The notes: generated by a model from the sequence alone, not told the origin. Numbered from the stretch's first letter, positions 11,950-25,539 are shown. The stretch: 32,000 nucleotides of DNA from an uncultured Opitutales bacterium (GCA_934660865.1 CAKUIA010000014.1:37354-69353); one strand, 5' to 3'. A program made the numbers and translations.

Positions 11950-12906
11950 ATGAGCGACGGCAAAACTATCCCTATATATATGTGCTGCGACGACAACTAC
12001 GCGGCGCAGTTAAGCGTTGTTTTGGCGTCTGTTTGCTACAATACAAAGGCAAACTTGCATTTTATTATACTAAGCGCCGCGCTTTCGGATTTATCCAAAC
12101 AAAAAATTGCCGATTCCGCAAAGAGCGCAAGGGTAGACTTTGTTTCAATTAAGCCCTATGCCGACGCCGTAAAAGACGTTAACGTTAAATTAAAACACCT
12201 TTCCATTGCGGCCTGCTACAGATACTTTATACCCCAGTTAGACTACGACTACGAAAAGGGCATTTATTTGGATTGCGACACCGTTGTTTTGGGCGACATC
12301 GAAAAGCTGTTCGACATAGACTTAAAAGACGCCCCGCTGGCTGCGGTAGAAGATACGGTTTCGGAAAAGCACTATAAAAAGTGGGGGCTTAAAAGATATT
12401 TCAATTCGGGCGTTTTGCTTTTGAACATAAAAAAGCTAAGGGAGGAAACTTCGCCTTTAAAGCTTGTGCAAAAAACTTTGGAGTTGGGCGATTCGCTTAA
12501 ATATGTAGACCAAGACGTGCTTAATATTTTGTATGCAAACACGGCCCTGTTTTTGCCGCCAAAATATGGCGCAATTTCGCCCCTGTTCAGGAAAACCGTT
12601 TCGCTTAAAAGCGCAAGCTTTGCCGACATAAACGAAGCCGTATACACCCCCGTTATAGTGCATTTTACGGGGCCGGACAAGCCGTGGAAAATTCCCCGCG
12701 GGCTAACCGCGCACCCGTGGGCTTGCGCCTATTTTTACTATTTGGGCAAAACTCGATTTGCCGATACAAAAGCCGAAATATTGCGCAACTTTAACGGCGT
12801 AAAAAACTTTGTTTGGTATTTTAAACGCCATTTTTTGTTTTTTGCGCGCCCGTACTACCTAAAAATGCGAAGGCTGTACAACCAAAATAAGGGGAAGTTT
12901 TTGTAA
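11950..12906 (+). CDS. Glycosyltransferase family 8 (LPS/LOS alpha-hexosyltransferase type)
   Basis: The motifs CCDDNYA, YLDCDTVVLGDI (DxD), FNSGVLLLN and HFTGPDKPW are characteristic of GT8 (RfaI/RfaJ/LgtC-like). Confidence 0.85.
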   Translation: MSDGKTIPIYMCCDDNYAAQLSVVLASVCYNTKANLHFIILSAALSDLSKQKIADSAKSARVDFVSIKPYADAVKDVNVKLKHLSIAACYRYFIPQLDYDYEKGIYLDCDTVVLGDIEKLFDIDLKDAPLAAVEDTVSEKHYKKWGLKRYFNSGVLLLNIKKLREETSPLKLVQKTLELGDSLKYVDQDVLNILYANTALFLPPKYGAISPLFRKTVSLKSASFADINEAVYTPVIVHFTGPDKPWKIPRGLTAHPWACAYFYYLGKTRFADTKAEILRNFNGVKNFVWYFKRHFLFFARPYYLKMRRLYNQNKGKFL

Positions 12907-12907
12907 A

Positions 12908-13858
12908 GTGCGCGGCTTTTTAGACATAGCGTTGGCACCCGACGACAACTACGCAAAATATGCAAAGGTTGTAATGCAAAGCGCAATGGACGCCTGCAAA
13001 ACGCCATTGCGTTTTTGGATTTTAGACGGCGGCTTGTCGGACAACTGCAAACAAATGCTAAAAAGCGTTTCCGACAATGTGGAGATTGTAAAAATAAACA
13101 AAGATATGTTTTGCGGCTTTCCGTCGAACGGCTACATAACGGTTTCCACCTGGTACAGGTTTGCAATAGCCGAGCTTTTGCCCGATAGCGTAAAAAGGGT
13201 TTTGTATTTGGATTGCGACATTGCCGTAGCCGACGATATTTCGGAATTGGCCGACATAAATTTGGACAATTACGCGGTGGCGGCCGTAAAAGACTGTATA
13301 TACAAAAAATTCGACAAAAGAATAGGGCTTTGCCAAAACTACCACTACTTTAACGCGGGGGTTTTGCTTATAAACCTAAATTACTGGCGGCAAAAAAACG
13401 TATGCAAAAGGCTTTTCGATTTTCTGGCAAAATCGCCCGAAAACCTGCGCTTGTTCGACCAGTCGGTTTTGAATTTGGTTTTAAAAGACGAATATTTGGA
13501 GCTTGATTTGCGCTACAACGTGCAGTATGTGCCGCCTTTTTTGGAGGAGTCGTGCTACGAAAGGGGCGAATTTTGCGCCGCGTTTGCAAGGCCCAAAATA
13601 ATACATTTTGTAAACCGCTTTAAGCCGTGGAATGCTAATTTCGGCTGGCTAAATCCCCTAAATGCCTACTTTGCAAGATATTTAAAATGTTCGTACACAA
13701 GGCGCAAGTTTGCGGTGTTTTTGCGCCTGTTTGCAAAAAGATTTGTCCGCAAACCCGTAATTTTGTTTAGATGTTATTATTGGAACAATGTTGCTTTGCA
13801 TTTCGCGGCAAAAGCGTTTGCGGCAAAAAAAGGTAAATCCCACAAAGCAGGAACTTAA
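12908..13858 (+). CDS. Glycosyltransferase family 8, tandem paralog
   Basis: The GTG start lies 1 nt after the previous stop. It carries the same motif set: PDDNYA, YLDCDIAVADDI, FNAGVLLINL and HFVNRFKPW. Confidence 0.85.
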   Translation: MRGFLDIALAPDDNYAKYAKVVMQSAMDACKTPLRFWILDGGLSDNCKQMLKSVSDNVEIVKINKDMFCGFPSNGYITVSTWYRFAIAELLPDSVKRVLYLDCDIAVADDISELADINLDNYAVAAVKDCIYKKFDKRIGLCQNYHYFNAGVLLINLNYWRQKNVCKRLFDFLAKSPENLRLFDQSVLNLVLKDEYLELDLRYNVQYVPPFLEESCYERGEFCAAFARPKIIHFVNRFKPWNANFGWLNPLNAYFARYLKCSYTRRKFAVFLRLFAKRFVRKPVILFRCYYWNNVALHFAAKAFAAKKGKSHKAGT

Positions 13859-13861
13859 TAT

Positions 13862-14788
13862 ATGAAACTTGATTTTCTAAGAAAAATATTCTCGTATAAG
13901 GTTGTAGACGAGCACATAAAATTGTGCGTGTTGGGCGTGCATGCAAATATCAGGCAAAAGGTTAAAATACAAACGCCCAAAATCACCCAAAGCGGCGTAA
14001 GCGGTTTGCAAAAAACAAAAGGACGCATAATATGCTCGCTAACCAGCATTCCCCAAAGGATAGACATGGTAGATATTGTCGTTGCGCGCCTGCTTAACCA
14101 AACCCTTAAGCCTGATATGGTTGTTTTGTATTTGGCAAGCGACGAATTCCCCGAAGGCGAAAAATCTTTGCCCGAAAAGCTGCTGGCTTTAAAACGGTTC
14201 GGCCTTACCGTTAAATTCTGCAAAAACTATAAGTCGTACAAAAAGCTTATTCCCGCTTTAATGGAATTTCCCGACGACTATATAATAACTTTCGACGACG
14301 ACATTTTGTACGACTTTGACGCGGTTGAAAATTTGTGGAAAAGCTCGCAGGCAAACCCCAACTGCGTGTGCTGCTACCGCACCGGGCGCATAAAGCTTGT
14401 AAACGGCGCAATTTCGCCCATATCGAACAACGTTTTGATTTGGAACCACCCGAACGACGCAACCTATAAAAACGTTATAATGAGCGGAACGGGAACGCTG
14501 TTTCCGCCGCACAGCCTTTATAAAGACATCTTAAACGAAGATATTTTTATGAAGCTTATGGCTTCGAACGACGAGATTTTCTTTTGGGCAATGGCCGTTT
14601 TAAACGGAACGAAAATTGTAAATACAAAGGGCTTTAACTATAAGTGCATACTTATAAGGCAGCAGCAAAAAGTGGCGCTAAGCCAAATAAACGTTGCGGG
14701 CAGCTCGAAGGGCATAGACGGCAAGTCGGCATTGCTGCTTATGGCGAAAACGTATCCCAAAATTATGGAAATTTTGGAAAACGAATAG
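13862..14788 (+). CDS. Putative glycosyltransferase (family not recognised)
   Basis: The start lies 3 nt after the previous stop. It has the N-terminal motif SLTSIPQRI and an acidic FDDDILY (DxD-like). The operon context is two GT8 genes. The family assignment is uncertain. Confidence 0.5.
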   Translation: MKLDFLRKIFSYKVVDEHIKLCVLGVHANIRQKVKIQTPKITQSGVSGLQKTKGRIICSLTSIPQRIDMVDIVVARLLNQTLKPDMVVLYLASDEFPEGEKSLPEKLLALKRFGLTVKFCKNYKSYKKLIPALMEFPDDYIITFDDDILYDFDAVENLWKSSQANPNCVCCYRTGRIKLVNGAISPISNNVLIWNHPNDATYKNVIMSGTGTLFPPHSLYKDILNEDIFMKLMASNDEIFFWAMAVLNGTKIVNTKGFNYKCILIRQQQKVALSQINVAGSSKGIDGKSALLLMAKTYPKIMEILENE

Positions 14789-14800
14789 AAATTTTTTCAC

Positions 14801-14840
14801 AAAAAACGGCGCAAACATTAAACTTTGCGCCGTTTTTTTG
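14801..14840. terminator. Bidirectional intrinsic terminator between convergent genes
   Basis: ACGGCGCAAA (14806..14815) pairs with TTTGCGCCGT (14824..14833) as a 10-bp stem with an 8-nt loop. An A6 run lies upstream and a T7 run downstream. Confidence 0.65.
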
Positions 14841-14861: not shown

Positions 14862-15170
14862 TTACGCTGCAGGTTGCGCCTTGGGGGCTGCGCTGCGCGA
14901 TTTTTTCGCCTTTGCCTTGGGCTTTTCGTCTTGGGCCTGTTCCTTTGCGGCAAGCTCCCTTTCGGCGATAAGGTCTTCAATCTTTTCCTTCATCGAGGCA
15001 AGTTCTTCAATCGACATAGAGTCGAGAGCCTTGTTTTCGTTTACGGGAATGTCCATACCGTGCGAACGCAAAATATCGTCTATCTTATTTTGGTTCTTCT
15101 TGTATAGATAGAAGCCCGTTGCGGCCAAACCTACGCCCAAAGCGGCGCCCAATATATAATCTCTTGTCAT
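14862..15170 (-). CDS. Small hypothetical membrane-anchored protein with a Lys/Ala-rich tail
   Basis: 102 aa with one N-terminal hydrophobic helix (ILGAALGVGLAATGFYLY), an acidic helical middle, and a C-terminal KPKAKAKKSRSAAPKAQPAA. It starts 25 nt after the ATPase stop on the same strand. I recognise no family. Confidence 0.45.
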   Translation of the reverse strand: MTRDYILGAALGVGLAATGFYLYKKNQNKIDDILRSHGMDIPVNENKALDSMSIEELASMKEKIEDLIAERELAAKEQAQDEKPKAKAKKSRSAAPKAQPAA

Positions 15171-15195: not shown

Positions 15196-17424
15196 TTATT
15201 TTAGAGTAGGTGCTTTCTCCATATCATAAAAGAGTATTCGCAGAGAATTTGCAACAACTAAAATTGTGGACGAATTGTGCATTACGGCCCCGAATATTAC
15301 CGGTATTGTGCCCAAAGCCCCCAACGCCAGGCCGAGAGTGTTTATGCCCACCGAGGCGTACAGGTTTTGGCGCACAATGTCCATTGTGTATTTCGAAAGG
15401 CCGTATATGCCCGGCAGCATAAGCGCGTTGTCGCCGGCAATGGTTATGTCGGCGGCCTCCATTGCCGCGTCGGTGCGGGTTTTGCCAAGTGCTATGCCGA
15501 CATCGGCGTAGGCAAGGGCGGGGGCGTCGTTAATTCCGTCGCCAACCATAACAACCTTGTTGCCGCGCGACTGCATTCTGAGAACCACCTTTGCCTTGTC
15601 TTCGGGCAAAAGCTCGTATTCGTAGCTGTCTACGCCGAGCCTGCGGGCAACTACGTCGGCTTGCTGCTCCAAGTCGCCCGTAAGAAGAACAATGTCGTCT
15701 ACGCCGACGGTGCGCAGGCGGTTTAGCGCCTTTTTCATATTCTCGCGCAAGGGGTCTCTTATGCCTATCAAGCCCGCAATTTCGTTGCCTTTCGAAACAT
15801 AGACAACGTTTTCGCCCTTCGCAAAAAGCGCCGAGGCCTGGTCGCGCATGGGGTGGGTGTGTATGCCGCATTCGTTTAAAAAGCGCTTGTTGCCCACGCG
15901 TATTATTGCTCCGTTTGCGGTTGTGTATACGCCGCGGCCGACAACGGTTTCTATGTCGCCGTGGCGCGGAATTGCGATAATGTCGCGCCGGGCCTTTGCA
16001 AGAATTGCCGAAGCCATCGGGTGCTTTGACGTTTCTTCGGCGGCGGCCGCAAACGAAACAACTTCGTTTTGCGAGAATTTGCCCGAAAGGGGAACAACGC
16101 TTTCAACCTGCGGTTTGCCCTCGGTAAGCGTTCCGGTTTTGTCCAAAATCAAGGTATCGGCATGGCTCATGGCCTCTATTACGCCGCTTCCCTTTATAAG
16201 CACGCCCTGGCGCGCCGCGGTGTTTATAGCCGCCGAAAGGGCGGCCGCCGTGGAAAGCTTTATGCCGCAAGAATAGTCTATTATAAGCATATTAAGCGCC
16301 CTGTTTACATCGCGCGTTATGGCATATACCAGGCCCGAAAGGAATATGTTTAGCGGAACTAGCGCCGACGAAAACTTGTCGGCATAGTTTTGCACAAGGG
16401 CTTTTTTGCCGCCTGCGTCTTCTACCATCTTTATTATTTTCGAAACCGTAGTGTCGGCCCCTGCAGATTCAGCTATGCAGGTAATTGTGCCGTCTACAAC
16501 AAGCGTTCCCGCAAAAACTTTGCCGCCTTTTTCGCGCGAAACGGGTTCGAATTCGCCCGTAATCGAGGCCTGGTTTATAACGGCGCGCCCCGAAAGAACA
16601 ACGCCGTCGGCGCAAATCTTTTCGCCCGAATGGACTACTATTATGTCGCCTTTTTTAAGCTCTTTTGCCGAAATTTTTTGCAGCGGGTTGCCTATTTTGT
16701 TGTTGTAGGGGTGCCAAACGGTTTCGTTTTCGACCGAAAGCATATCCCTTATGGCGTTTCGCGTGCGGTTCATTGTGTAAACCGTCATGGATTCGGCAAA
16801 ATCGTGCAAAAACAAAACCGTCAACGCCGAAGCCGCCTTGCCCGACAATACGCTTGAAAGCACCGCCAACGCGCTTAGCGTGTCGGCATTGGGCAGCATG
16901 GAGCGCTTAAAGGCCTTTAAGCCGCTTTTAAACAAAGGCAGCGCCAGCGACATTGCTCCTATGCCGGGGAACCCGAAAAGCCTGCCCCTTAAAGTTGCGG
17001 GCACGGGCGACTTTAAAAGCCATACTCCCAAAAGCATTGCAGCCGAAACCGCGCTGCGCGTTATCAGCGTAGAAAGCGGTTCTTCGTGCAGGTCTCGCTC
17101 CTGAACAAGGAGCTTGTTTTGCTCTTCGCGCTCCCTTTGCAAAATGCCGAGCGAGTGCGCCGCAACGATTTCCTCTACCGACACCAAAAGGCGTTTCGAG
17201 TCGTTTTTGGATTCGTCGTATACAATGACAAGCGATTTTGCATAGGGGTTTATCCTTGCCGAAATTACGCCCTCTAAAAGCTTGAAGTGGCCCGCCAAAT
17301 GCTCTTTGTCTTCGCCGGTTCCCACATATTTAAACGCGTTGCAGGTTATCCTTACACGCCCCGAAATTTCGTGCGCAATAGAGCACTTTAAAAGGGGTTT
17401 TTTGTTTTTCGAGAAAAACGACAT
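15196..17424 (-). CDS. P1B-type (heavy-metal-type) P-type ATPase with an atypical TM4 motif and an N-terminal cysteine-free HMA-like module
   Basis: 742 aa with the P-type motifs ITGE, DKTGTLT, TGD and GDGINDAPAL, and an 8-TM P1B-like layout. The residues 42-44 positions before the phosphorylated Asp read Y-S-C instead of C-P-C. The last TM helix reads MHNSSTILVVANSLR. Confidence 0.9.
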   Translation of the reverse strand: MSFFSKNKKPLLKCSIAHEISGRVRITCNAFKYVGTGEDKEHLAGHFKLLEGVISARINPYAKSLVIVYDESKNDSKRLLVSVEEIVAAHSLGILQREREEQNKLLVQERDLHEEPLSTLITRSAVSAAMLLGVWLLKSPVPATLRGRLFGFPGIGAMSLALPLFKSGLKAFKRSMLPNADTLSALAVLSSVLSGKAASALTVLFLHDFAESMTVYTMNRTRNAIRDMLSVENETVWHPYNNKIGNPLQKISAKELKKGDIIVVHSGEKICADGVVLSGRAVINQASITGEFEPVSREKGGKVFAGTLVVDGTITCIAESAGADTTVSKIIKMVEDAGGKKALVQNYADKFSSALVPLNIFLSGLVYAITRDVNRALNMLIIDYSCGIKLSTAAALSAAINTAARQGVLIKGSGVIEAMSHADTLILDKTGTLTEGKPQVESVVPLSGKFSQNEVVSFAAAAEETSKHPMASAILAKARRDIIAIPRHGDIETVVGRGVYTTANGAIIRVGNKRFLNECGIHTHPMRDQASALFAKGENVVYVSKGNEIAGLIGIRDPLRENMKKALNRLRTVGVDDIVLLTGDLEQQADVVARRLGVDSYEYELLPEDKAKVVLRMQSRGNKVVMVGDGINDAPALAYADVGIALGKTRTDAAMEAADITIAGDNALMLPGIYGLSKYTMDIVRQNLYASVGINTLGLALGALGTIPVIFGAVMHNSSTILVVANSLRILFYDMEKAPTLK

Positions 17425-17427
17425 TTT

Positions 17428-17793
17428 TTAGCCTAATTTTGAAAGTTTTTCGCAAATATCGGCAACAAGCCTGCGCTCGTCGTCGGCGGTTTGGGTTGTC
17501 TTTAAAGCGTCTAAAACCGTTTGCCAGGCGGTGTCTATCCAGCCGGTTATTTCGCTTTCGGTTATGTTTTTCGGAACATACTCTATCAGAACATTGCCCG
17601 TATACTGGTTTAGCGAAACGCCGCTTATTCCCTTTTTAGACTTTAGCACGCCGATTAGCGCGTCGGCATATTCGGCTACATATTCGGGGTTGTTTTTAAG
17701 CCCCCAAATATTTATCCTTAGCCTGCCAGGCATACTGTGTACGATTTTGGGCTTGCCAAGAAGTTTTACGAAAGTTTTTTGTATGGAGTTCAT
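17428..17793 (-). CDS. Small cysteine-free HMA-like protein (what Pfam calls HMA_2, named from memory), partner of the ATPase
   Basis: The preferred start is the ATG at 17793..17791, which forms an ATGA overlap with the upstream stop. The alternative is the ATG at 17826. The stop lies 3 nt before the ATPase ATG. The module is IVHSMPGRLRINIWGL...GISGVSLNQYTGNVLIEYV. Confidence 0.65.
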   Translation of the reverse strand: MNSIQKTFVKLLGKPKIVHSMPGRLRINIWGLKNNPEYVAEYADALIGVLKSKKGISGVSLNQYTGNVLIEYVPKNITESEITGWIDTAWQTVLDALKTTQTADDERRLVADICEKLSKLG

Positions 17794-18386
17794 TTGTTGT
17801 GCGATACGCTTTGAAATAGCCACCATATAAGGTTTATCGGAAAATATGTTTGCGAGGCCTGCAAGCCCAGTTTTCTTCTTACAACGGGAATGGATTTTAC
17901 AAGCTGGAACACCAAAAGCAGCGTAATTGCAGCCCTGATGTCCAGTATGCCCTTTGTGCGGCTAAGCATTGCCTGGTTAAGCGCAAAACCTATGGTAGAA
18001 AGCTCTTTGGCCAAAATGGATTTTCTCGCCCGCATTTCGCCTTCAAAGTTAAAGCAATACGTCAGCGCAGAAACCACTATTGTAGGCGACAAAACCGCGC
18101 TGTCGTATTCTATCAAAAATGTTCCCAACAAAACGTTTGCCGAAATTTTTTTAACGCCGCGCACGGGCGACATTGCCTTTACTATGTTGTCGGCCAAAAC
18201 GGGCACGCCCTTTGTGGACGGAATTTTCACCCTTATTCTGCCGGATATTGAATGGACAACCTCCAACACGCCCGCAAAAGAGGGCGGTTTTTGCGCCAGC
18301 ATAACGGGCAAAGCGTCGGTGTTGCTGCAACTTTTAAAAATTTCCATAATGTTTCTGATTATCGCCATAACTTTTTTTAGGGTCAA
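17790..18386 (-). CDS. HMA-like (cysteine-free) protein with a hydrophobic C-terminal segment; first gene of the ATPase operon
   Basis: 198 aa from the TTG at 18386, or from the ATG at 18368. The module is VVHSISGRIRVKIPSTKG...GVKKISANVLLGTFLIEYD. The C-terminal part has a hydrophobic stretch (AAITLLLVFQLVKSIPVV). Confidence 0.6.
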   Translation of the reverse strand: MTLKKVMAIIRNIMEIFKSCSNTDALPVMLAQKPPSFAGVLEVVHSISGRIRVKIPSTKGVPVLADNIVKAMSPVRGVKKISANVLLGTFLIEYDSAVLSPTIVVSALTYCFNFEGEMRARKSILAKELSTIGFALNQAMLSRTKGILDIRAAITLLLVFQLVKSIPVVRRKLGLQASQTYFPINLIWWLFQSVSHNK

Positions 18387-18418
18387 GAGTAGATATTGTT
18401 AAAAATTTTTTAATTGTT

Positions 18419-18446
18419 AGTTTATTCTAACTTTTTTTATTGTCAA
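18419..18446 (-). promoter_or_regulatory. Candidate sigma-70-type promoter of the HMA-like/ATPase operon
   Basis: On the minus strand: TTGACA (18446..18441), a 16-nt spacer, then TAAACT (18424..18419). It lies about 30 nt upstream of the first start codon. Confidence 0.35.
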
Positions 18447-18501
18447 GGGGCAAAGTTTGTTTTTCTTGCCAAAGTTTTTCGGCAAAAATATACAGTTTGG
18501 A

Positions 18502-20127
18502 ATGAAATTTATAGGAACTGTATTTCTTGTTATATGTATGGGGTTTGCAAACGCCTTTTGCGCGCAAAACGACATTTTTGCCGGGCAGCGCGACGGCTGG
18601 CTTAAAAAGGCCGAAAGCCTTACCCCAAAATTAAGCTATAAAATTGTGCGTCCAAAATTTGTTGTGCAAGCCCAAAAAGACCCTTCGGCATTTCAGGGCA
18701 TAAGATACGCAAAAAGCGGCCAAAAAGTGGAGGACATCTACAAAAGCGATTTCAGAAAAATCAAGACGATAACGCTCGATTTTGGCGACCACTACACGGG
18801 CTATTTTACTTTTAAAACAAAGCTTTTTAACGCACCGCTAGACGCCCCCGTAAGGATAAAATTCTTTTTCGGCGAATTGCCCGCCGAGCTTAACACTCCG
18901 CTAGAGCCGTGGAAATGCTCGCTTTCGCGAGCCTGGATTCAGGACGAAATTATCACACTAACCGAAATGGGCAAAGCCTATACAATCCCGCGCAGGGTTT
19001 CGTTTAGGTATTTAAAAATAGAGCTTTTGGGCTACTCAAAATACTTCGACTTTGCCATAGACGATATGTTTATTACCGCGCAAACTTCGGCAAACGACAA
19101 TCCTGAAAAGCTGCCTGCAAATGCTTCGAAGGAAATTGTAGACATCTACAACGTTGCGCTAAAAACGCTGGCCGAGTGCATGCAAACCGTCTACGAAGAC
19201 GGCCCGAAGCGCGACCAGCGTCTTTGGCTTGGCGATTTGTATCTAGAATCGCTTGCAAACGCAAAAACCTTTAAAAATTTTAACCTTACAAAAAGGTGTT
19301 TGTATTTGTTTGCTGGGCTTTCGGGCAAAAACGGTTTTGTGTATCCTAATTGTTTTGAAAAGCCTTTTTTGCACTCGCAAAAGTCTAACTGCATTTCCTA
19401 CAGCTTGCTGTTTAACAGCACGTTGCTTGAATATTTAAAAGACACAAAAGACTACGAAACTGCGCGTGAACTTTGGCCCGTCGCAAAGAGGCAAATAGAG
19501 TTAGCCCTTGATTATGTAGACAAAAACGCAATGCACGACGGCAAGAAAAATGGCTGGAGGTTTTTCGACTGGCGCGCGGGCTTCGACCCTACGGCGTGCA
19601 TGCAGGCGGCCACAATTTTTGCGCTGTCTCAAACAAGGCAGCTTGCGCAAATGCTCGGCAAAAGCTCCGAAAATTGGGAGGAAATTCAGGAGGATATGCA
19701 AGCCGCATCTCTCGAAAAACTTTTCGATAAAAACCGCAATGTTTTTGTGTGCCCAAGCGGGCAAGTTTCGGTGTTGACGCAGGCTTGGTTTGCGTTGGCA
19801 AATGTGGGAGGCAAAGAACTCCAAAAAACGGCAATTAAAAACGCGCTTTTAGACCCGAAATCGGTTAAGCTGGGCACGCCATATGCCACACACTATTTAA
19901 TAGAGGCAATGCTTGCCTGCGGTATGGAAGACGAAGCAAGAGAGTATCTTTTAAACTATTGGGGCTCGATGGTAAAAAAGGGTGCCGACACTTTTTGGGA
20001 GGCCTACGACCCGAATAACGACTATATTTCTCCCTACGGCTTTTACCCGTCTAACAGCGCATGCCACGCCTGGAGCTGCACGCCCGCGTATTTCATTCAA
20101 AAATACCCCGAAGTTTTTTTAAAATAG
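18502..20127 (+). CDS. Secreted six-hairpin glycosidase, GH78-like (putative alpha-L-rhamnosidase family)
   Basis: The ATG at 18502 gives signal peptide MKFIGTVFLVICMGFANAFCAQ; the track uses the TTG at 18457. DGPKRDQRLWLGDL resembles the GH78 DCPQRDERLGWTGD block. The C-terminal FWEAYDP...SACHAWSCTPAYF is typical of the (alpha/alpha)6 domain. Confidence 0.7.
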   Translation: MKFIGTVFLVICMGFANAFCAQNDIFAGQRDGWLKKAESLTPKLSYKIVRPKFVVQAQKDPSAFQGIRYAKSGQKVEDIYKSDFRKIKTITLDFGDHYTGYFTFKTKLFNAPLDAPVRIKFFFGELPAELNTPLEPWKCSLSRAWIQDEIITLTEMGKAYTIPRRVSFRYLKIELLGYSKYFDFAIDDMFITAQTSANDNPEKLPANASKEIVDIYNVALKTLAECMQTVYEDGPKRDQRLWLGDLYLESLANAKTFKNFNLTKRCLYLFAGLSGKNGFVYPNCFEKPFLHSQKSNCISYSLLFNSTLLEYLKDTKDYETARELWPVAKRQIELALDYVDKNAMHDGKKNGWRFFDWRAGFDPTACMQAATIFALSQTRQLAQMLGKSSENWEEIQEDMQAASLEKLFDKNRNVFVCPSGQVSVLTQAWFALANVGGKELQKTAIKNALLDPKSVKLGTPYATHYLIEAMLACGMEDEAREYLLNYWGSMVKKGADTFWEAYDPNNDYISPYGFYPSNSACHAWSCTPAYFIQKYPEVFLK

Positions 20128-20243
20128 CGCAAGTTTTTTTCGGGAATCTTAAGAGGCAATTTTTCCGGCAAACAGCAAAAGTTTTGCCGAAAAATGCTTG
20201 AAATTTTATTCGCAAAAATTTTTATTTCGCGGGAAAAACCATT

Positions 20244-20762
20244 ATGAAAATTTCTACCAAAACGGGAGACGCGGGCAAAACAAAGCTTATGTTCGGCAAA
20301 AGCGTTTTTAAAAACTCGCCGAGGGTATGCGCATACGGCGCGGTAGACGACCTGTCGGCAACGCTGGGTTTTGCGCGCTCTTTTGCCGGCAAAGAAACGG
20401 CCGAATTTATCCTAAAAATACAAAAATCGCTTGTGTTTTTAATGACCGAACTTGCAACCGCAAACGAAGATTTTGGCAAACTTAAAGAGCATAAAATCCG
20501 CCTATTGGACGAAAGCGATTTAAAGCTTTTTGAGGACAAAATTCAGGCGGCCGAAGATAACGGCAACCTGTTTAATTCTTGGACATATTCGGGCGAGAGC
20601 CATTTGCAGGCGGCTTTGGATATGGCGCGCACGCGCTGCAGATTTGCCGAAAGGGAAATTGTTGCCCTTGCAAATTCGGAGGGTTTGGCAAGGGATTTCC
20701 CTTTAAAATATATAAACAGGCTTTCGGATTTGCTTTGGATTTTGTCGCAGGAGGCAAAATAG
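20244..20762 (+). CDS. pduO: ATP:cob(I)alamin adenosyltransferase, PduO type
   Basis: 172 aa. The N-terminus KISTKTGDAGKTKLMFGKSVFKNSPRVCAYGAVDDLSATLGFAR matches the PduO-type signature (T.TGD.G.T.L..G..v.K...r..ayG..DEL). Confidence 0.85.
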   Translation: MKISTKTGDAGKTKLMFGKSVFKNSPRVCAYGAVDDLSATLGFARSFAGKETAEFILKIQKSLVFLMTELATANEDFGKLKEHKIRLLDESDLKLFEDKIQAAEDNGNLFNSWTYSGESHLQAALDMARTRCRFAEREIVALANSEGLARDFPLKYINRLSDLLWILSQEAK

Positions 20763-20802
20763 AACACTACAGCACATAACAGTTTGATATTTTTAAGATT
20801 CT

Positions 20803-20836
20803 AGCCCAAAGCGTTTTTTTGTTTTGGGCTTTTTTA
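20803..20836 (+). terminator. Intrinsic terminator after pduO
   Basis: AGCCCAAA (20803..20810) pairs with TTTGGGCT (20823..20830) and is followed by a T run. Confidence 0.65.
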
Positions 20837-20842
20837 TTCAAT

Positions 20843-20880
20843 TTTGTACGCTACAAATTGGTAGTTGCATACAAATTTGT
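20843..20880 (+). promoter_or_regulatory. Candidate upstream activator sites (palindromes) for the sigma-54 promoter
   Basis: TTTGTA-cgc-TACAAA lies at 20843..20857 and the perfect 10-bp palindrome ACAAATTTGT at 20871..20880. They sit about 85-115 bp upstream of the -24/-12 element. Confidence 0.3.
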
Positions 20881-20958
20881 CGTTTATTATAGGAGCAAAA
20901 AATAGGGGTTTATTTGTATCTTGTTGATGGTTAGCAAAAATATGCACCTACAAAAAAC

Positions 20959-20974
20959 TGGCACAGATAATGCT
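20959..20974 (+). promoter_or_regulatory. Candidate sigma-54 (-24/-12) promoter of the dctPQM-eutBC operon
   Basis: TGGCACagataaTGCT compared with the consensus TGGCACG-N4-TTGCW. GG is at 20960-20961 and GC at 20972-20973, which is the canonical spacing. It lies 40 nt upstream of the ATG at 21014. Confidence 0.55.
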
Positions 20975-21013
20975 AGCACAAAAAGCATAGTTTAAAAACA
21001 GGCTATAAAAACT

Positions 21014-22105
21014 ATGGATACAACAAATACAAAAAAGGAAACCGCACCTGCCGTTTCGGCAGGACGTATGAACAAGAGGGGCTTTTTTAAGACTCTCGGT
21101 ATTGGAACTGCCGCCATTATGGGGGCTCCCTATGTAATGGGTGCGGCCAAAAAGCCCATAAAGTGGCGCATGCAAACGTATGCAAGCACGTCGTTGGGCG
21201 CGCATGTAATTAAACCGGCCGTAGACGCATTCAACAAAATCGCCAACGGCGAAATGAAAATAGAGTTGTATTACGCCGACCAGTTAGTGCCCACTAGCGA
21301 GTTGTTTAGCGCACTGCAACAAGGCACTTTAGACTGCGTACAAAGCGACGACGATTCCATGGGTTCCCCCGCAGACGTTGCTCCCTTTAGCGCATATTTC
21401 CCGCTGGCTACACGCTATTCGCTAGATGTTCCCGCCTTGTTCAACGAATTCGGTTTGGGCAAGCTTTGGGCGGAATCGTATAAAGAGGTTAAAAATGTAA
21501 CCTGGCTAAGCTCGGGCTCGTGGGACCCTTGCAACTTTATTACAAAAGACCCCATTCGCTCGCTTGCCGACATTAAGGGCAAAAAGCTTTATACTTTCCC
21601 GACGGCAGGCCGCTTTTTAACGCGCTTTGGCATAGTTCCGGTTACAATTCCCGTAGAAGACATTGAAATGGCAATGCGCACGGGCGAGCTAGACGGCGTT
21701 GTATGGTGCGGCATAACGGAGGCATACACGGTAGGGTGGTCGAACGCGACAAACTACTTTTTAACAAACAATATTTCGGGCGCTTGGATTGGCTCGTTTT
21801 TGGCGAACACAAAGTCGTGGGCAAAGGTGCCGCCGCACCTGCAAGAATTGTTTAAAGTTTGCATGGACTATTCGCACTACTACCGCCAATACTGGTATTG
21901 GGGCGGCGAGGCCAACCTGCGCGTAAACGGCGGCAAGCTAAAGCTTACAACCATTCCCGCCGAAGAATGGAAGCTTGTGGAAAGCGAAGCCGTAAAGTTT
22001 TGGGACGAGCTAATAGCAAAAGGCACTCCGCGCCAAAAACAGGTTGTAAAAATATTGCGCGACTACAACGCAATGATGGAAAAGGCGGGTTCTCCGTACA
22101 GATAA
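21014..22105 (+). CDS. dctP: TRAP transporter solute-binding protein (DctP family, Tat-like signal)
   Basis: 363 aa. The Tat-like signal MNKRGFFKTLGIGTAAIMGAPYVMGAA has KR in place of RR. The overall pattern resembles the DctP subfamily with Tat signals (COG4663-like, from memory). The true start may be M19. Confidence 0.8.
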   Translation: MDTTNTKKETAPAVSAGRMNKRGFFKTLGIGTAAIMGAPYVMGAAKKPIKWRMQTYASTSLGAHVIKPAVDAFNKIANGEMKIELYYADQLVPTSELFSALQQGTLDCVQSDDDSMGSPADVAPFSAYFPLATRYSLDVPALFNEFGLGKLWAESYKEVKNVTWLSSGSWDPCNFITKDPIRSLADIKGKKLYTFPTAGRFLTRFGIVPVTIPVEDIEMAMRTGELDGVVWCGITEAYTVGWSNATNYFLTNNISGAWIGSFLANTKSWAKVPPHLQELFKVCMDYSHYYRQYWYWGGEANLRVNGGKLKLTTIPAEEWKLVESEAVKFWDELIAKGTPRQKQVVKILRDYNAMMEKAGSPYR

Positions 22106-22127
22106 AATCCGCTTTATAAGGGCTATG

Positions 22128-22171
22128 GCCCGCCGCCGTTTGCAGACAAAATTTGCGTTTCGGCGGCGGGC
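22128..22171 (+). other. GC-rich intercistronic hairpin between dctP and dctQ
   Basis: GCCCGCCGCCG (22128..22138) is the perfect complement of CGGCGGCGGGC (22161..22171), giving an 11-bp stem. A T6 run follows, but only 10 nt downstream. Confidence 0.6.
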
Positions 22172-22213
22172 ATGCCACGTGTTTTTTAACTAAATATATT
22201 GGCTGTTTTTTAT

Positions 22214-22810
22214 ATGATTATCAGAAGAACAAGATTCGACGATTTGGACGAATGGCTTGATTCTGTCGATTGGCACAAGGTTGGCGAAAAGATGGGAGCG
22301 CCCATTTTAAGGCTGATGCGCGTGTATATAAAATATGTCGGCAAATTAAGCGAATTTGTAGGAGCAGGGGCTATGTATCTGCTTTTGGCAATGATGGGCA
22401 TATTGCTGTATTCTATTGTTACAAACGCATTTCACCGCCCCGAAATTTGGGTTATGGAAATGGCGCAGTTTACAATGGCCGCCTACTATATTTTGGGCGG
22501 GGCAAGCAGCCTAAAACACGGCATACATGTTAGAATGGACTTTCTATACGAGCGCTGGAAGCCGCGAACCAAGGCTTTGGTAGACGTATTTACCGTGTTC
22601 TTTTTGCTGTTTTACCTGTACATAATGGTAAAGGGCGGCTACGACAGCTCGGCCTTTGCGCTGGAATTCGACCAACGCAACCACAGTGTTTGGAAGCCCC
22701 CAATGGCTCCCATTAAGATAATAATGACTTCGGGCATGGCGTTGATGTTTTTGCAAGCTACGGCCGAATTGTTGAAGGACTTTTGCTACGCAATAGGAAG
22801 GAAGTATTAA
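22214..22810 (+). CDS. dctQ: TRAP transporter small permease (DctQ)
   Basis: The ATG at 22214 is preferred; the track uses the TTG at 22199. It has four predicted hydrophobic helices and sits between dctP and dctM. Confidence 0.75.
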   Translation: MIIRRTRFDDLDEWLDSVDWHKVGEKMGAPILRLMRVYIKYVGKLSEFVGAGAMYLLLAMMGILLYSIVTNAFHRPEIWVMEMAQFTMAAYYILGGASSLKHGIHVRMDFLYERWKPRTKALVDVFTVFFLLFYLYIMVKGGYDSSAFALEFDQRNHSVWKPPMAPIKIIMTSGMALMFLQATAELLKDFCYAIGRKY

Positions 22811-22811
22811 A

Positions 22812-24137
22812 ATGTCTCCTGCAATGATAATTTTGTTGATGTTTTCGACGCTAATGCTGCTTATGCTTACAGGCCAAAGGGTGTTTGCGGCGATGGGCTT
22901 TGTGGGCGTGGCGGCCGCCCTGCTTTTGTGGGGCGACGGCAGCACGGCGTTGGGTTTTAACGCCGCCATAAAGCTGTTTAACTGGTACCCAATGCTAACT
23001 TTGCCATTGTTCGTATTTATGGGCTTTATGCTTTCGGAATCGGGCATTGCAAACGATATGTACCACATGTTCCATGTTTGGATGGGCTCGCTAAAAGGCG
23101 GCTTGGCCGTGGGCACATTGTTTGTAATGGTGCTAATTTCCTGCATGAACGGCCTTAGCGTTGCGGGCATGGCCATTGGCTGTAGTGTGGCGCTGCCCGA
23201 ACTGTTAAAGCGCAATTACGACAAGCGCATGATTAGCGGCCTTATACAAGCGGGCAGCTCGTTGGGCATTTTAATACCGCCAAGCATAGTTTTGGTTTTG
23301 TACGGTATGATAGCCCGCCAACCGGTAAGCCAACTTTGGCTTGCGGGCATAGGCCCGGGGCTGTTGATGACGGGCTTGTTTTTGGCGTATATTCTAATTA
23401 GGTGCCACTTTAACCCGAAAATGGGCCCGGTGCTTCCAAAAAGCGAGCGCAACTATACGTTAAAGGAAAAGCTAAAGGTTTTAAGCGCGGGCATAATTCC
23501 GCTTTTGCTGATATTTTCGGTTATAGGTTCGTTTTTCTTCGGGCTTACAAGCTTGGTGGAAAGCTCGGCATTCGGCGCGTTTGCCGCGTTTTTGGTGGCG
23601 CTGTTTCGCCGCAGGCTTTCGTGGAGGCTGTTTAGGAAAATATTGCGCGAAACTTTGGACAACTCGGCAATGTTTATGTGGGTTATGATGGCAGCCCTCG
23701 CTTTTGCCGCCGTGTTCGACGGCCTTGGCGCAGTTAGAGCCCTGGAGGGATTGTTCCTTAACGACTGGGGTTTGTCGCCGTGGCAAGTGCTGCTTTTAAT
23801 GCAATTATCGTTCGTAATATTGGGCATATTTTTGGACGATACCGCAATGCTTGTAATAGTTGCACCCTTGTACATACCTTTGGTTATAAAGCTTGGCTTT
23901 AACCCGATATGGTTCGGCATACTATATACAATCACCTGCCAAATTGCATATATAACCCCGCCTTTCGGCTACAATCTGTTCCTCATGCGCGCGATGTCGC
24001 CCAAGAGCATAACGATAAGGGATATATACGCCTCGATAATTCCCTTTGTAGGTCTTATGCTGCTGGCTTTGGTTCTTATAATGATATTCCCCGAAATAGC
24101 ATTGTGGATACCGTCGCTGTTCAACACCAAAATGTAG
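22812..24137 (+). CDS. dctM: TRAP transporter large permease (DctM)
   Basis: 441-aa polytopic protein starting 1 nt after the dctQ stop. It has the typical DctM composition and length. Confidence 0.9.
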   Translation: MSPAMIILLMFSTLMLLMLTGQRVFAAMGFVGVAAALLLWGDGSTALGFNAAIKLFNWYPMLTLPLFVFMGFMLSESGIANDMYHMFHVWMGSLKGGLAVGTLFVMVLISCMNGLSVAGMAIGCSVALPELLKRNYDKRMISGLIQAGSSLGILIPPSIVLVLYGMIARQPVSQLWLAGIGPGLLMTGLFLAYILIRCHFNPKMGPVLPKSERNYTLKEKLKVLSAGIIPLLLIFSVIGSFFFGLTSLVESSAFGAFAAFLVALFRRRLSWRLFRKILRETLDNSAMFMWVMMAALAFAAVFDGLGAVRALEGLFLNDWGLSPWQVLLLMQLSFVILGIFLDDTAMLVIVAPLYIPLVIKLGFNPIWFGILYTITCQIAYITPPFGYNLFLMRAMSPKSITIRDIYASIIPFVGLMLLALVLIMIFPEIALWIPSLFNTKM

Positions 24138-24144
24138 TTTAAAA

Positions 24145-25539
24145 ATGAAAAAGTCTTGGAGCATTTGCGTTGGAAACAAAACCCATAATTTCCACTCTTT
24201 AAAGGAGCTAATGGCAAAGGCGTCGCCCCTGCGCTCGGGCGACGTGCTTGCGAAAGTTGCCGCCGCCGACTACGAAGAAAGGGTTGCAGCCCAAATGTGT
24301 CTGGCCGACGTTCCGCTTGAAATGTTCCTTACAGAGCCGTTAATTCCATACGAAAAAGACGAAATTACGCGCCTTATTTTAGACCGCCACAACAAAGAGG
24401 CTTTCAAGCCTATTTCGTCGTTTACCGTGGGCGAGTTTAGAGACTGGCTGCTGCGCTACGAAACCGACGGCAAGGTTTTAGAGGAAATCACTTGGGGGCT
24501 AACCCCCGAAATGGTTGCGGCAGTCTCTAAAATTATGGGCAACCAAGACTTGATTTTAGTGGCTTCCAAACGCCAGGTTATAACAAAGTTTAGGGACACC
24601 ATAGGCCTAAAGGGCAGGTTTTCGTCTAGGCTGCAGCCGAACGACCCTTCCGACAACCTAAAGGCCATTGCGGCCTCCATGCTAGACGGCCTGCTGTACG
24701 GCAGCGGCGACGCCGTAATAGGCATAAACCCCGCAACCGACAGCGTGCCGGCAATGACGGAAATCTTAAAGCTTATAGACGAGCTTGTGCACCGCTACGA
24801 AATTCCCACGCAATCGTGTGTGCTTTCGCATGTAACAAACGCGATTGCCGTTATGGAAAACGGCGGGCCCGTAGATTTGGTTTTTCAATCCATTGCGGGC
24901 ACCGAAATTGCAAACAAAAATTTCGGCATAAATTTGGGGATTTTAAAAGAGGCGCACGAGGCCGCATTGTCGCTGCACAGGGGCACCATTGGCGACAACG
25001 TAATGTATTTCGAAACGGGGCAGGGCTCGGCGCTGTCGGCCGAGGGCAACTGGAATGTAGACATGCAAACTTGCGAGGCCCGAGCCTATGCCGTGGCACG
25101 CGAATTTAGACCCTTGCTTGTAAATACGGTTGTAGGGTTTATAGGCCCCGAATATTTGTATAACGGCAAGCAAATAATAAGGGCTGGTTTGGAAGACCAC
25201 TTTTGCGGCAAACTGCTTGGCCTGCCTATGGGTTGCGATATTTGCTACACAAACCACGCCGAGGCCGACCAGGACGATATGGATACATTGCTTACGCTTT
25301 TGGCTGCGGCGGGCTTAACCTATGCAATGGGCATTCCCGGCTGCGACGACGTTATGCTGGGGTATCAAACAACGTCTTTTCACGACATTTTATATGCGCG
25401 CCAGCTGCTCGGGCTAAGGCCTGCGCCCGAGTTCGAGGCGTGGCTCGAAAAAATGAAAATCTTTAACAACAACAAGGTGTTGGCGTTAAACAATAACAAC
25501 AAACTGCTTGCAGACTATGGATTTACCGGCAATAGATAA
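24145..25539 (+). CDS. eutB: Ethanolamine ammonia-lyase large subunit
   Basis: It aligns by eye along its length with E. coli EutB: KASPLRSGDVLAKVAA, RLQPNDPSDN, GSGDAVIGINP, YFETGQGSALSA, NTVVGFIGPEYLYNGKQIIRAGLEDHF and MGCDICYTNHA. The start lies 7 nt after the dctM stop. Confidence 0.95.
   Translation: MKKSWSICVGNKTHNFHSLKELMAKASPLRSGDVLAKVAAADYEERVAAQMCLADVPLEMFLTEPLIPYEKDEITRLILDRHNKEAFKPISSFTVGEFRDWLLRYETDGKVLEEITWGLTPEMVAAVSKIMGNQDLILVASKRQVITKFRDTIGLKGRFSSRLQPNDPSDNLKAIAASMLDGLLYGSGDAVIGINPATDSVPAMTEILKLIDELVHRYEIPTQSCVLSHVTNAIAVMENGGPVDLVFQSIAGTEIANKNFGINLGILKEAHEAALSLHRGTIGDNVMYFETGQGSALSAEGNWNVDMQTCEARAYAVAREFRPLLVNTVVGFIGPEYLYNGKQIIRAGLEDHFCGKLLGLPMGCDICYTNHAEADQDDMDTLLTLLAAAGLTYAMGIPGCDDVMLGYQTTSFHDILYARQLLGLRPAPEFEAWLEKMKIFNNNKVLALNNNNKLLADYGFTGNR

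Follow-up and report, generated by a model that had tools for sequence, protein, structure and literature searches.

What does a P1B-type metal pump do if neither its N-terminal domain nor the small proteins encoded beside it carry the CxxC metal site of classical HMA domains? This question is raised by positions 15196-18386 of a 32,000-nucleotide stretch of DNA from an uncultured Opitutales bacterium (GCA_934660865.1 CAKUIA010000014.1:37354-69353; the whole stretch is called the window in this text). The window matches, at 98% identity, an uncultured Opitutales (Verrucomicrobiota) metagenome-assembled genome from Hadza gut samples. We find that the locus encodes a P1B ATPase, two partner proteins (g1 and g2) that share a CoBaHMA domain with the pump, and a small membrane protein (g4), and that this set of genes travels together through many phyla. 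It recalls the fez clusters that specify ferrosomes and may be a variant of them.

Operon organization

The coding content of 15196-18386 consists of three co-directional open reading frames (ORFs) on the minus strand: g1, g2 and the P-type ATPase gene. Their tight packing, which had been pointed out in the original prediction, was confirmed in the sequence. The ATGA at 17790-17793 is the g1 stop codon overlapping the g2 start codon, and the junction between g2 and the ATPase reads TAA-AAA-ATG, i.e. a gap of 3 nucleotides (nt). The g1 protein has 192 amino acids (aa) from its ATG, and gene callers give the identical figure on identical metagenome contigs. For g2, an alternative ORF starts at 17826. 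Its 11-codon upstream extension is not conserved among g2 homologues, and the N-termini of the homologues from many genomes all read MNP, MNS or MNA and align to the internal ATG. We therefore take the internal ATG, which overlaps g1, as the true start of g2.

The locus had been described as a three-gene operon. The three genes stand, but the extent does not: the operon runs past 15196 into a fourth ORF, g4, which starts 25 nt after the ATPase and is followed by a terminator hairpin 24 nt past the g4 stop codon. The genes, their domains and the main motifs, including those in transmembrane (TM) helices, are as follows.

17790..18368, minus strand: g1, a 192-aa membrane-associated CoBaHMA protein (CoBaHMA domain at 18054-18272, then a C-terminal helical hairpin)
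17428..17793, minus strand: g2, a 121-aa soluble CoBaHMA protein (CoBaHMA domain at 17542-17757)
15196..17424, minus strand: P1B-type ATPase of 742 aa (TIGR01525; Pfam E1-E2_ATPase, Hydrolase and HMA_2)
17155-17391, minus strand: N-terminal CoBaHMA domain of the ATPase (Pfam HMA_2)
16552-16560, minus strand: ATPase motif TGE
16264-16278, minus strand: ATPase motif DYSCG in TM4
16129-16143, minus strand: ATPase motif DKTGT
15265-15279, minus strand: ATPase motif HNSST in TM6 (residues 716-720)
14862..15170, minus strand: g4, a 102-aa single-pass membrane protein (conserved immediately 3' of the pump in 62 loci)
15102-15158, minus strand: N-terminal glycine-zipper TM segment of g4, GAALGVGLAATGFYLYKKN
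14801..14838, minus strand: intrinsic terminator hairpin at the operon end (15-bp stem with 6 GC pairs, T-runs on both sides)

A shared HMA module with a basic patch

One copy of the same module of about 70 aa is present in each of g1, g2 and the ATPase N-terminus. All three reach or exceed the gathering score of 30 bits of the Pfam family PF19991 (HMA_2): g1 with 8e-30 (104.2 bits), covering positions 2-153 of 154, g2 with 8e-10 (39.3 bits), and the ATPase N-terminus with a borderline 5e-7 (30.3 bits). The modules also match each other in pairwise BLASTP (E = 2e-8 for g1 against g2, 9e-6 and 1e-3 for the other pairs). These matches are far beyond chance and bear out the earlier suggestion that the three products share a module.

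The proposed HMA fold is likewise supported, by the Pfam search and by structure models. The AlphaFold model of g1 (83 homologues, mean pLDDT 83) shows a beta-beta-alpha-beta-beta-alpha topology followed by helices, and that of the ATPase (54 homologues, pLDDT 78) begins with the same topology and continues with eight TM helices. In Foldseek, the g1 model superposes on MerP, CopP, CopZ, ATP7B domains and the YAM domain of YajR at 1.5-2.3 A over about 60 residues. The probability of these matches is 1.0; their E-values are modest (0.007-0.05), as the query extends beyond the domain. Invariant basic-patch residues are H39, R44 and R46 in g1 (83 sequences, in which G82 and G140 are invariant as well) and H18, R23 and R25 in the ATPase (54 sequences); the corresponding signature region of g2 is HSMPGRLRI. 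As modelled, the modules are HMA folds that have no CxxC and carry a conserved His and a GRxR basic patch.

The HMA_2 profile represents the CoBaHMA domain, short for "Conserved Basic residues HMA" (Microcystis preprint). This domain was first described in calcyanin as an HMA core that lacks the metal-binding cysteines and gains a further strand, beta0, in which a His is strictly conserved; its beta1 and beta2 carry conserved basic residues (Benzerara et al. 2022, PMC8890360). As cited in later papers, Gaschignard et al. (2024) hypothesize a regulatory role of the domain that involves anionic lipids. All three modules of the operon share with this family the beta0 His, the basic beta1, the ferredoxin-like HMA core and the lack of CxxC. 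They differ from it in that the family was defined from calcyanin and structure models, whereas here three copies occur in one operon together with a pump, and in that the pump copy carries an extra, nearly invariant C14.

A second line of work had come upon the same feature. Grant et al. (bioRxiv 10.1101/2020.01.10.902569) described an "R-rich motif" (RxR) at the N-terminus of three kinds of protein: the ATPase FezB, other P1B ATPases related to it (CtpC among them) and fez accessory proteins. The pattern h-H-[SE]-h-x-G-R-h-R-h given in the original prediction is both the CoBaHMA signature and this R-rich motif. In fez clusters, a P1B-6 ATPase (FezB) is encoded together with the R-rich proteins FezC and FezD and the GxxxG proteins FezA, FezE and FezG; the combination of a P1B-6 ATPase, R-rich proteins and GxxxG proteins defines the fez or ferrosome clusters. 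Feo and Fur genes are found in association with them, and the clusters have been studied by deletion, complementation or heterologous expression in D. magneticus, S. putrefaciens and R. palustris (bioRxiv 10.1101/2020.01.10.902569). In C. difficile, where fezB has been deleted, ferrosomes depend on FezB and accumulate on Fur inactivation, and FezB is thought to import Fe(II) into a compartment with a ferrous phosphate mineral (PMC13307979). The original statement that no functional study of such an arrangement was known thus has to be withdrawn: the CoBaHMA domain, or R-rich motif, is published and fez clusters have been studied genetically. The domain, the motif and the logic of the cluster are already in the literature. 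What we did not find described is the clade of pumps with an SCG motif to which this ATPase belongs, its four- or five-gene cassette, and the unannotated g4 family.

The absence of CxxC from g1, g2 and the ATPase module was confirmed. The description of the small proteins as cysteine-free, on the other hand, is true of the g1 and g2 modules only. The whole g1 and g2 proteins do have cysteines, all outside the modules (Cys14 and Cys105 in g1, one near the C-terminus in g2), and the ATPase module contains Cys14, which is conserved in at least 90% of 54 homologues, and Cys28. The pump copy is the only one of the three with cysteines, in the arrangement KC14-x3-H18-x4-R23-x-R25-x2-C28 (residues 14-28, window 17341-17385), and its Cys14 is missing from FezB of Azospirillum and Arcobacter. 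Judging from these residues, a Cys/His metal site on the basic face of the pump module is possible.

With an HMA fold, a P1B pump and a small chaperone-like protein encoded beside it, the operon could be mistaken for a pair of the CopZ/CopA or MerP type, and some homologues are indeed named "copper chaperone CopZ" or "copper-exporting P-type ATPase A". We consider a classical copper chaperone with its pump extremely improbable and have rejected it. The operon has neither CxxC nor CPC, the basic patch replaces the thiol site, and the scores against copper models remain below their cut-offs (TIGR01511: 316 vs 397; CopA equivalog: 306 vs 1316).

An intact pump with a conserved thiol

The pump scores 521 bits against TIGR01525 (P1B; cut-off 346), and its catalytic motifs DKTGT, TGE and GDGINDAP are present and invariant. 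It is an intact P1B ATPase. The putative metal site in the membrane combines DYSCG (TM4) with HNSST (TM6), and TM5 has invariant Asn residues. Across 54 homologues, D383, S385, C386, N687, N695, H716, N717 and T720 do not vary, and D[YLF]SCG is present in 118 of the 120 best homologues. The original prediction had proposed that substrate recognition by this pump does not depend on thiols. The invariance of Cys386 in DYSCG, together with the conservation of Cys14, argues against this; going by residue conservation, a thiol very probably takes part in metal recognition. No solved structure was found for the SCG clade, and the best matches in the PDB (CopA, the cadmium-translocating P-type ATPase 7qbz, and ZntA) concern the pump core only.

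The partner proteins and the distribution of the cassette

The g1 protein is composed of the CoBaHMA domain, an amphipathic helix and a hydrophobic hairpin in which G140-x2-D143 and WW182-183 are conserved. The g2 protein has no hydrophobic segment and is soluble. Four relatives of g1 were obtained by a single-sequence word search, which was repeated with a 35-sequence alignment from genome loci. The g1 profile matches both Azospirillum fez CoBaHMA proteins (each at about 97% probability, E about 1e-10), and the match to the membrane-bound one spans 118 columns. The C-terminal helical hairpin of g1 gave no match to DUF4405, a family said to resemble the membrane domains of FezC.

We surveyed 78 genome loci (numbered with the letter L below) by our own ORF calling and iterated searches with hidden Markov models. 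The gene order g1-like, g2-like, pump, g4-like was found in about 60 of about 70 SCG-type loci. Carriers belong to Opitutales, Victivallales/Lentisphaeria, Kiritimatiellae, Planctomycetes, Phycisphaerae, Clostridia and Syntrophobacteraceae, and further to Nitrospirales, Calditrichota, Latescibacterota, Armatimonadetes, KSB1 and GN15; further copies were seen in Clostridium sp. MB40-C1, Tepidibacter, Fusobacterium vincentii and on Priestia megaterium plasmids. The triad first seen in the window is thus conserved, and the genes of the cassette are inherited together in many phyla. This agrees with the earlier proposal that the small proteins belong to the pump: g1 and g2 are paralogous CoBaHMA proteins and its dedicated partners. 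When all flanking ORFs were clustered, FeoB was the sole recurrent neighbour. No other flanking family recurs, and the cassette therefore behaves as a self-contained unit.

Outside the lineages of gut and rumen Planctomycetes-Verrucomicrobia-Chlamydiae (PVC) bacteria, most versions of the cassette have a fifth gene between the pump and g4 (noted in L037, L039-L050, L054-L065, L082, L083, L085 and L086). Its product of about 280 aa (about 250-300 aa, 196 aa in Priestia) begins with a CoBaHMA motif, e.g. HKMHNRVRVK, and has hydrophobic segments; it shows no precomputed Pfam match in L082 and L083, the loci with annotations. In the fifth-gene lineages, g1 has an N-terminal hydrophobic helix, of which there is none in the lineage of the window. 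By this comparison, the window lineage has lost the fifth gene, and its g1 the N-terminal helix.

In gut Kiritimatiellae, the pump can occur alone or with g4 only (L023, L027 and L036, also L024, L026, L028 and L029). The accessory genes of these organisms are either dispensable or encoded elsewhere in the genome.

The full cassette is found on many plasmids of Priestia megaterium and P. aryabhattai, with the TM4 motif DFICGIK and the order g2-g1-pump-fifth gene-g4. One of these plasmid copies (L085) adjoins MarR and rhodanese genes. The Priestia plasmids represent a mobile version of the cassette in hosts that can be cultured aerobically.

In two loci of Syntrophobacter type, a second R-rich P-type ATPase is encoded just 3' of the cassette (L044, 6109-8409; L045, 8990-11221). 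Its N-terminus reads QTQGRVRVKV, and a search for the TM4 motif gave DCICFDK. It recalls FezH, the second pump of large fez clusters.

The g4 protein and the comparison with effluxosomes

In g4, a glycine-zipper TM segment is followed by an acidic amphipathic helix, EELASMKEKIEDLIAERE. The GxxxG motif (G8-x3-G12, plus G14) lies inside the TM helix. Invariant residues of the protein are G8, G12, G14, Y21, Y23, K61, E62, E65, D66, E70 and E72; in the acidic helix, the invariant set K61, E62, E65, D66, A69, E70 and E72 is found. By the positive-inside rule, this C-terminal helix is predicted to be cytoplasmic. No Pfam or NCBIfam family was found for g4, and 31 members of the g4 family gave no match to DUF1490 (PacL), DUF6110 or YtxH at E<=1, which sets g4 apart from these families by sequence. 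An exhaustive HMMER search with g4 yielded 92 representative clusters in 1.84 billion proteins, all of them 48-129 aa long.

A small membrane protein with a TM zipper is also known from the "effluxosomes" of Mycobacterium tuberculosis, which PacL forms with CtpC, CtpG or CtpV. In PacL, the TM zipper is built of small residues, and Glu/Ala repeats bind the metal-binding domain of the pump (PMC13460109, PMC13043812). By this analogy, the operon might encode an efflux platform in the plasma membrane, whose pump would remove surplus Zn, Mn, Fe or Cd. Here, g4 would play the part of PacL as a single-pass scaffold: its acidic, Ala-rich helix would bind the CoBaHMA domain of the pump and so stabilise and cluster the pump, which g1 and g2 would modulate. 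To our knowledge, all characterised P1B pumps export metal from the cytoplasm, so that the general direction of transport speaks for efflux. The components are also alike: CtpC is described as P1B-6-like, with the same R-rich N-terminal domain lacking CxxC, and in both systems the pump is encoded with a small single-pass protein that combines a small-residue TM zipper with an acidic, Ala-rich cytosolic helix. Homologues of the pump are auto-annotated as "manganese/zinc-transporting P-type ATPase C", and the copies on Priestia megaterium plasmids stand beside a MarR-family regulator.

However, the likeness of g4 to PacL does not extend beyond architecture. Neither g4 nor its 30 relatives match DUF1490 or DUF6110 at E<=1, and hhalign of g4 against a Rhodococcus PacL (DUF1490) gave no match, whereas fez GxxxG proteins were matched. 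The best of these is a 90-aa Arcobacter fez GxxxG protein (91%, E 1e-6, 18 TM columns); a weak match to an Azospirillum fez protein annotated as YtxH runs over the whole length (29%, E 6e-4, 56 columns), and the hydrophobic proteins of Cereibacter fez were not matched. Further differences from the PacL-CtpC pair concern the pump, whose TM4 reads SCG where CtpC has CPC, the position of the helper gene, which is 3' of the pump for g4 and 5' for PacL, and the two free-standing CoBaHMA proteins, which PacL systems do not have. The context of the SCG cassette is iron uptake, not metal intoxication. No metal sensor of the ArsR, MerR or CsoR type is adjacent in the four annotated loci, and the Fur boxes and feoAB neighbours described below suggest co-regulation with iron uptake, the opposite of a detoxification logic. 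We therefore regard an efflux platform, the foremost competing explanation, as rather doubtful, though worth keeping in mind.

Iron uptake genes and candidate regulatory sites

FeoB is directly adjacent to the cassette in five lineages and one gene off in a sixth (Victivallales, Phycisphaerae, Calditrichota, Planctomycetaceae, KSB1 and Tepidibacter). In Tepidibacter, the genes Fur-FeoA-FeoB-FeoA-FeoA-FeoB lie immediately upstream of the cassette. In C. acetireducens, two overlapping Fur boxes, close to the consensus (17/19 and 16/19), are located 56-80 bp 5' of g1 and are the sole such sites in the locus, and Clostridium sp. MB40 has a Fur box (16/19) 125 bp 5' of g1. In a scan of the regions 5' of g1, PVC, deltaproteobacterial and most other loci lacked a strong site. 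The two Clostridium loci are the only convincing cases, and Fur control can therefore not be generalised.

In the window itself, three elements were noted around the start of the operon.

18419..18446, minus strand: sigma-70-like promoter TTGACA-16-TAAACT 5' of g1, predicted by consensus (10/12 consensus matches)
18416..18432, minus strand: palindrome AGTTAG-N6-CTAAC, candidate operator over the -10 region, kept in Opitutales-type loci
18345..18363, minus strand: Fur-box-like site GATAATCAGAAACATTATG over the g1 start and first codons, 15/19 against GATAATGATAATCATTATC

The Fur-like site is the best match in the whole 32-kb window. The palindrome (extended form AAGTTAG-N6-CTAACTT), placed between the promoter-like -35 hexamer and g1, has a single match in the window, where 0.02 would be expected. 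It is kept 5' of g1 in 6 of 7 distinct Opitutales-type loci (L004, L005, L007, L041, L043 and L051, with none in L006) as well as in the near-identical contigs L001-L003, and it is conserved although the flanking DNA has diverged. We take its half-sites to resemble the GTTAG/CTAAC core of DtxR/IdeR iron boxes, with a different spacing. An Rfam scan of the whole window gave no match, so that no riboswitch or leader RNA accounts for the regulation.

A possible relationship to ferrosome clusters

By analogy with fez, we propose that the operon is a variant of the fez (ferrosome) type of cluster and sequesters Fe(II), a reading that we prefer to the others but see as evenly poised between right and wrong. 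The two systems have the same components. Each includes a P1B pump that starts with an R-rich (CoBaHMA) module and carries D[YF]SC in TM4 and HNxxT in TM6, a pair of CoBaHMA proteins (one soluble, the other membrane-associated) and a small membrane protein with GxxxG. The profiles of g1 and g4 match fez accessory proteins, feoAB and Fur are associated in several genomes, and the organisms are mostly anaerobes.

According to this proposal, the pump would move Fe(II), or a similar divalent first-row metal, from the cytoplasm into a membrane-bounded space. The g4 protein would cluster the membrane, curve it, or both, by means of its GxxxG zipper. Through their basic patches, the three CoBaHMA domains of the operon would organise the assembly, or regulate or gate it; possible ligands of the patches are the acidic helix of g4, anionic lipid and phosphate. 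The acidic helix is a candidate partner because the Glu/Ala repeats of PacL bind the R-rich N-terminal domain of CtpC. If the parallel with fez holds, the operon would yield an iron phosphate store enclosed by a membrane, and its expression would be coupled to that of iron-uptake genes under Fur-type control.

Several observations weigh against this proposal. To begin with, FezB (P1B-6) is defined by D[Y/F]SCA in TM4 and HNxxT in TM6 (Grant et al., bioRxiv 10.1101/2020.01.10.902569). The HNSST of our pump agrees with HNxxT, whereas its TM4 reads DYSCG. In Supplementary Table 1 of the same study, sequences with DYSCG[ILV][KR] and HNxxT have a colour group of their own, outside the FezB group, with members from Clostridium kluyveri, C. 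sporogenes, C. botulinum, C. acetireducens, Fusobacterium, Leptotrichia, Negativicutes, Bacillaceae and Salinispira (bioRxiv 10.1101/2020.01.10.902569). The motifs of the pump (DYSCGIK, HNSST and GRVRITC) agree with this separate group, and its C. acetireducens protein is a 50%-identical homologue of the pump. The locus tags of the group that we checked (CLAOCE, CKL_11 and Lebu_20) appear in the tree table only and not in the tables of fez-cluster proteins; the gene neighbourhoods of the SCG group were apparently not analysed by Grant et al. We found no study of the D[YF]SCG ATPase clade or of the cassette in the literature.

For comparison, we took reference clusters from a plasmid collection: the fez clusters of Azospirillum and Arcobacter (DYSCALK, HNGTT) and of Cereibacter (DYACPVK), and a Rhodococcus pair of PacL and a CtpC-like pump. 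In a rough neighbour-joining tree (707 columns, 100 bootstraps, few FezB sequences), the SCG clade and the FezB clade (Azospirillum, Arcobacter and Cereibacter) were each recovered in 100/100 replicates and their union in 34/100. The pump shares 31% identity with FezB, which is no more than it shares with the CtpC-like pump (33%) or with outgroup P1B pumps (30-32%). By these comparisons, the pump is not a FezB; it is a deep lineage of its own that shares signature motifs with FezB.

The gene content departs from fez as well. The operon is not built around a FezB homologue, its pump being a related R-rich P1B ATPase of another group with an unsupported sister relationship to FezB. It has one GxxxG protein only, placed 3' of the pump, and neither a DUF2202 ferritin-like gene nor a FeoA-domain gene. 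The likeness of g4 to fez GxxxG proteins is mainly the 18-column TM match. The fifth gene is missing from the lineage of the window, and in some Kiritimatiellae loci neither g1 nor g2 accompanies the pump. No iron-homeostasis gene stands beside the operon among the annotated genes of the window. The Fur-like site of the window is kept only in the closest relatives (about 98% identity) and is therefore weak evidence; it may simply be coding sequence. Gene context alone points to the identity of the metal, and while ferrosomes have been shown for fez, the SCG clade is known from genes alone.

The same observations could be explained by a different cargo, such as Mn, Co, Ni or a non-iron intracellular biomineral, with the replacement of Ala by Gly in TM4 signalling that the substrate is no longer that of FezB. 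A deep clade, separate from FezB and with SCG fixed, would fit this explanation, and iron genes are absent from the neighbourhood of most loci. CoBaHMA domains are found in calcyanin too and, in cyanobacteria that form intracellular Ca carbonate, together with hairpin and single-TM helpers encoded beside ccyA. Against this stand the remaining ligands, which are those of FezB (Asp, Ser and Cys in TM4; His, Asn and Thr in TM6), and FeoB as the only recurrent neighbour outside the cassette. Another cation or mineral therefore seems unlikely to us. Calcium carbonate in particular was rejected: there is no calcyanin or GlyZip protein, and a Cys- and His-containing site does not suit Ca.

The fez-type reading could also be taken one step further. 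Tentatively, and with the chances rather against it, we suggest that the SCG cassette specifies a membrane-bounded metal-storage compartment of its own, i.e. a second, independently evolved type of ferrosome-like organelle. Its metal or mineral might differ from that of ferrosomes. It would occur in gut PVC bacteria, Fusobacterium, toxigenic Clostridium and on Bacillaceae plasmids, and would be assembled through contacts of the basic patches of three or four CoBaHMA domains with the acidic helix of g4.

Flanking genes

The neighbours of the operon (11950-14788 and 18457-26350) are unrelated carbohydrate and metabolic genes. They include two GT8 and one GT2 glycosyltransferases, a GH78-like rhamnosidase, a cobalamin adenosyltransferase, a tripartite ATP-independent periplasmic (TRAP) transporter (DctPQM) and the ethanolamine ammonia-lyase EutBC. 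Further away, 27713-31822 (minus strand) is a low-GC block (35-40% vs 42-52% in the rest of the window) with four ORFs of 207-459 aa that have no Pfam match at E<=1e-5. It adjoins a Wzy_C (O-antigen polymerase/ligase-like) gene and is probably a variable surface-polysaccharide locus, possibly acquired horizontally.

Implications

Ferrosomes are a recently recognised, lipid-bounded iron store, for which fez genes have so far proved essential in only a few species. If the SCG cassette does the job of a ferrosome, membrane-bounded metal storage would extend to many more anaerobes. It would then reach Fusobacterium, the Clostridium botulinum/sporogenes group, Verrucomicrobiota, Lentisphaerota and Kiritimatiellota of the rumen and the human gut, and Priestia plasmids. 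If the cassette is an efflux platform instead, the idea of a PacL-type scaffold would be generalised beyond Actinobacteria by way of an unrelated family of helper proteins. The cassette is directly testable because it is compact (four or five genes) and has hosts that are culturable and genetically tractable. In either case, it offers a natural experiment on the role of the CoBaHMA (R-rich) domain, and on whether the residue that follows the TM4 cysteine, Ala or Gly, tunes the choice of metal.

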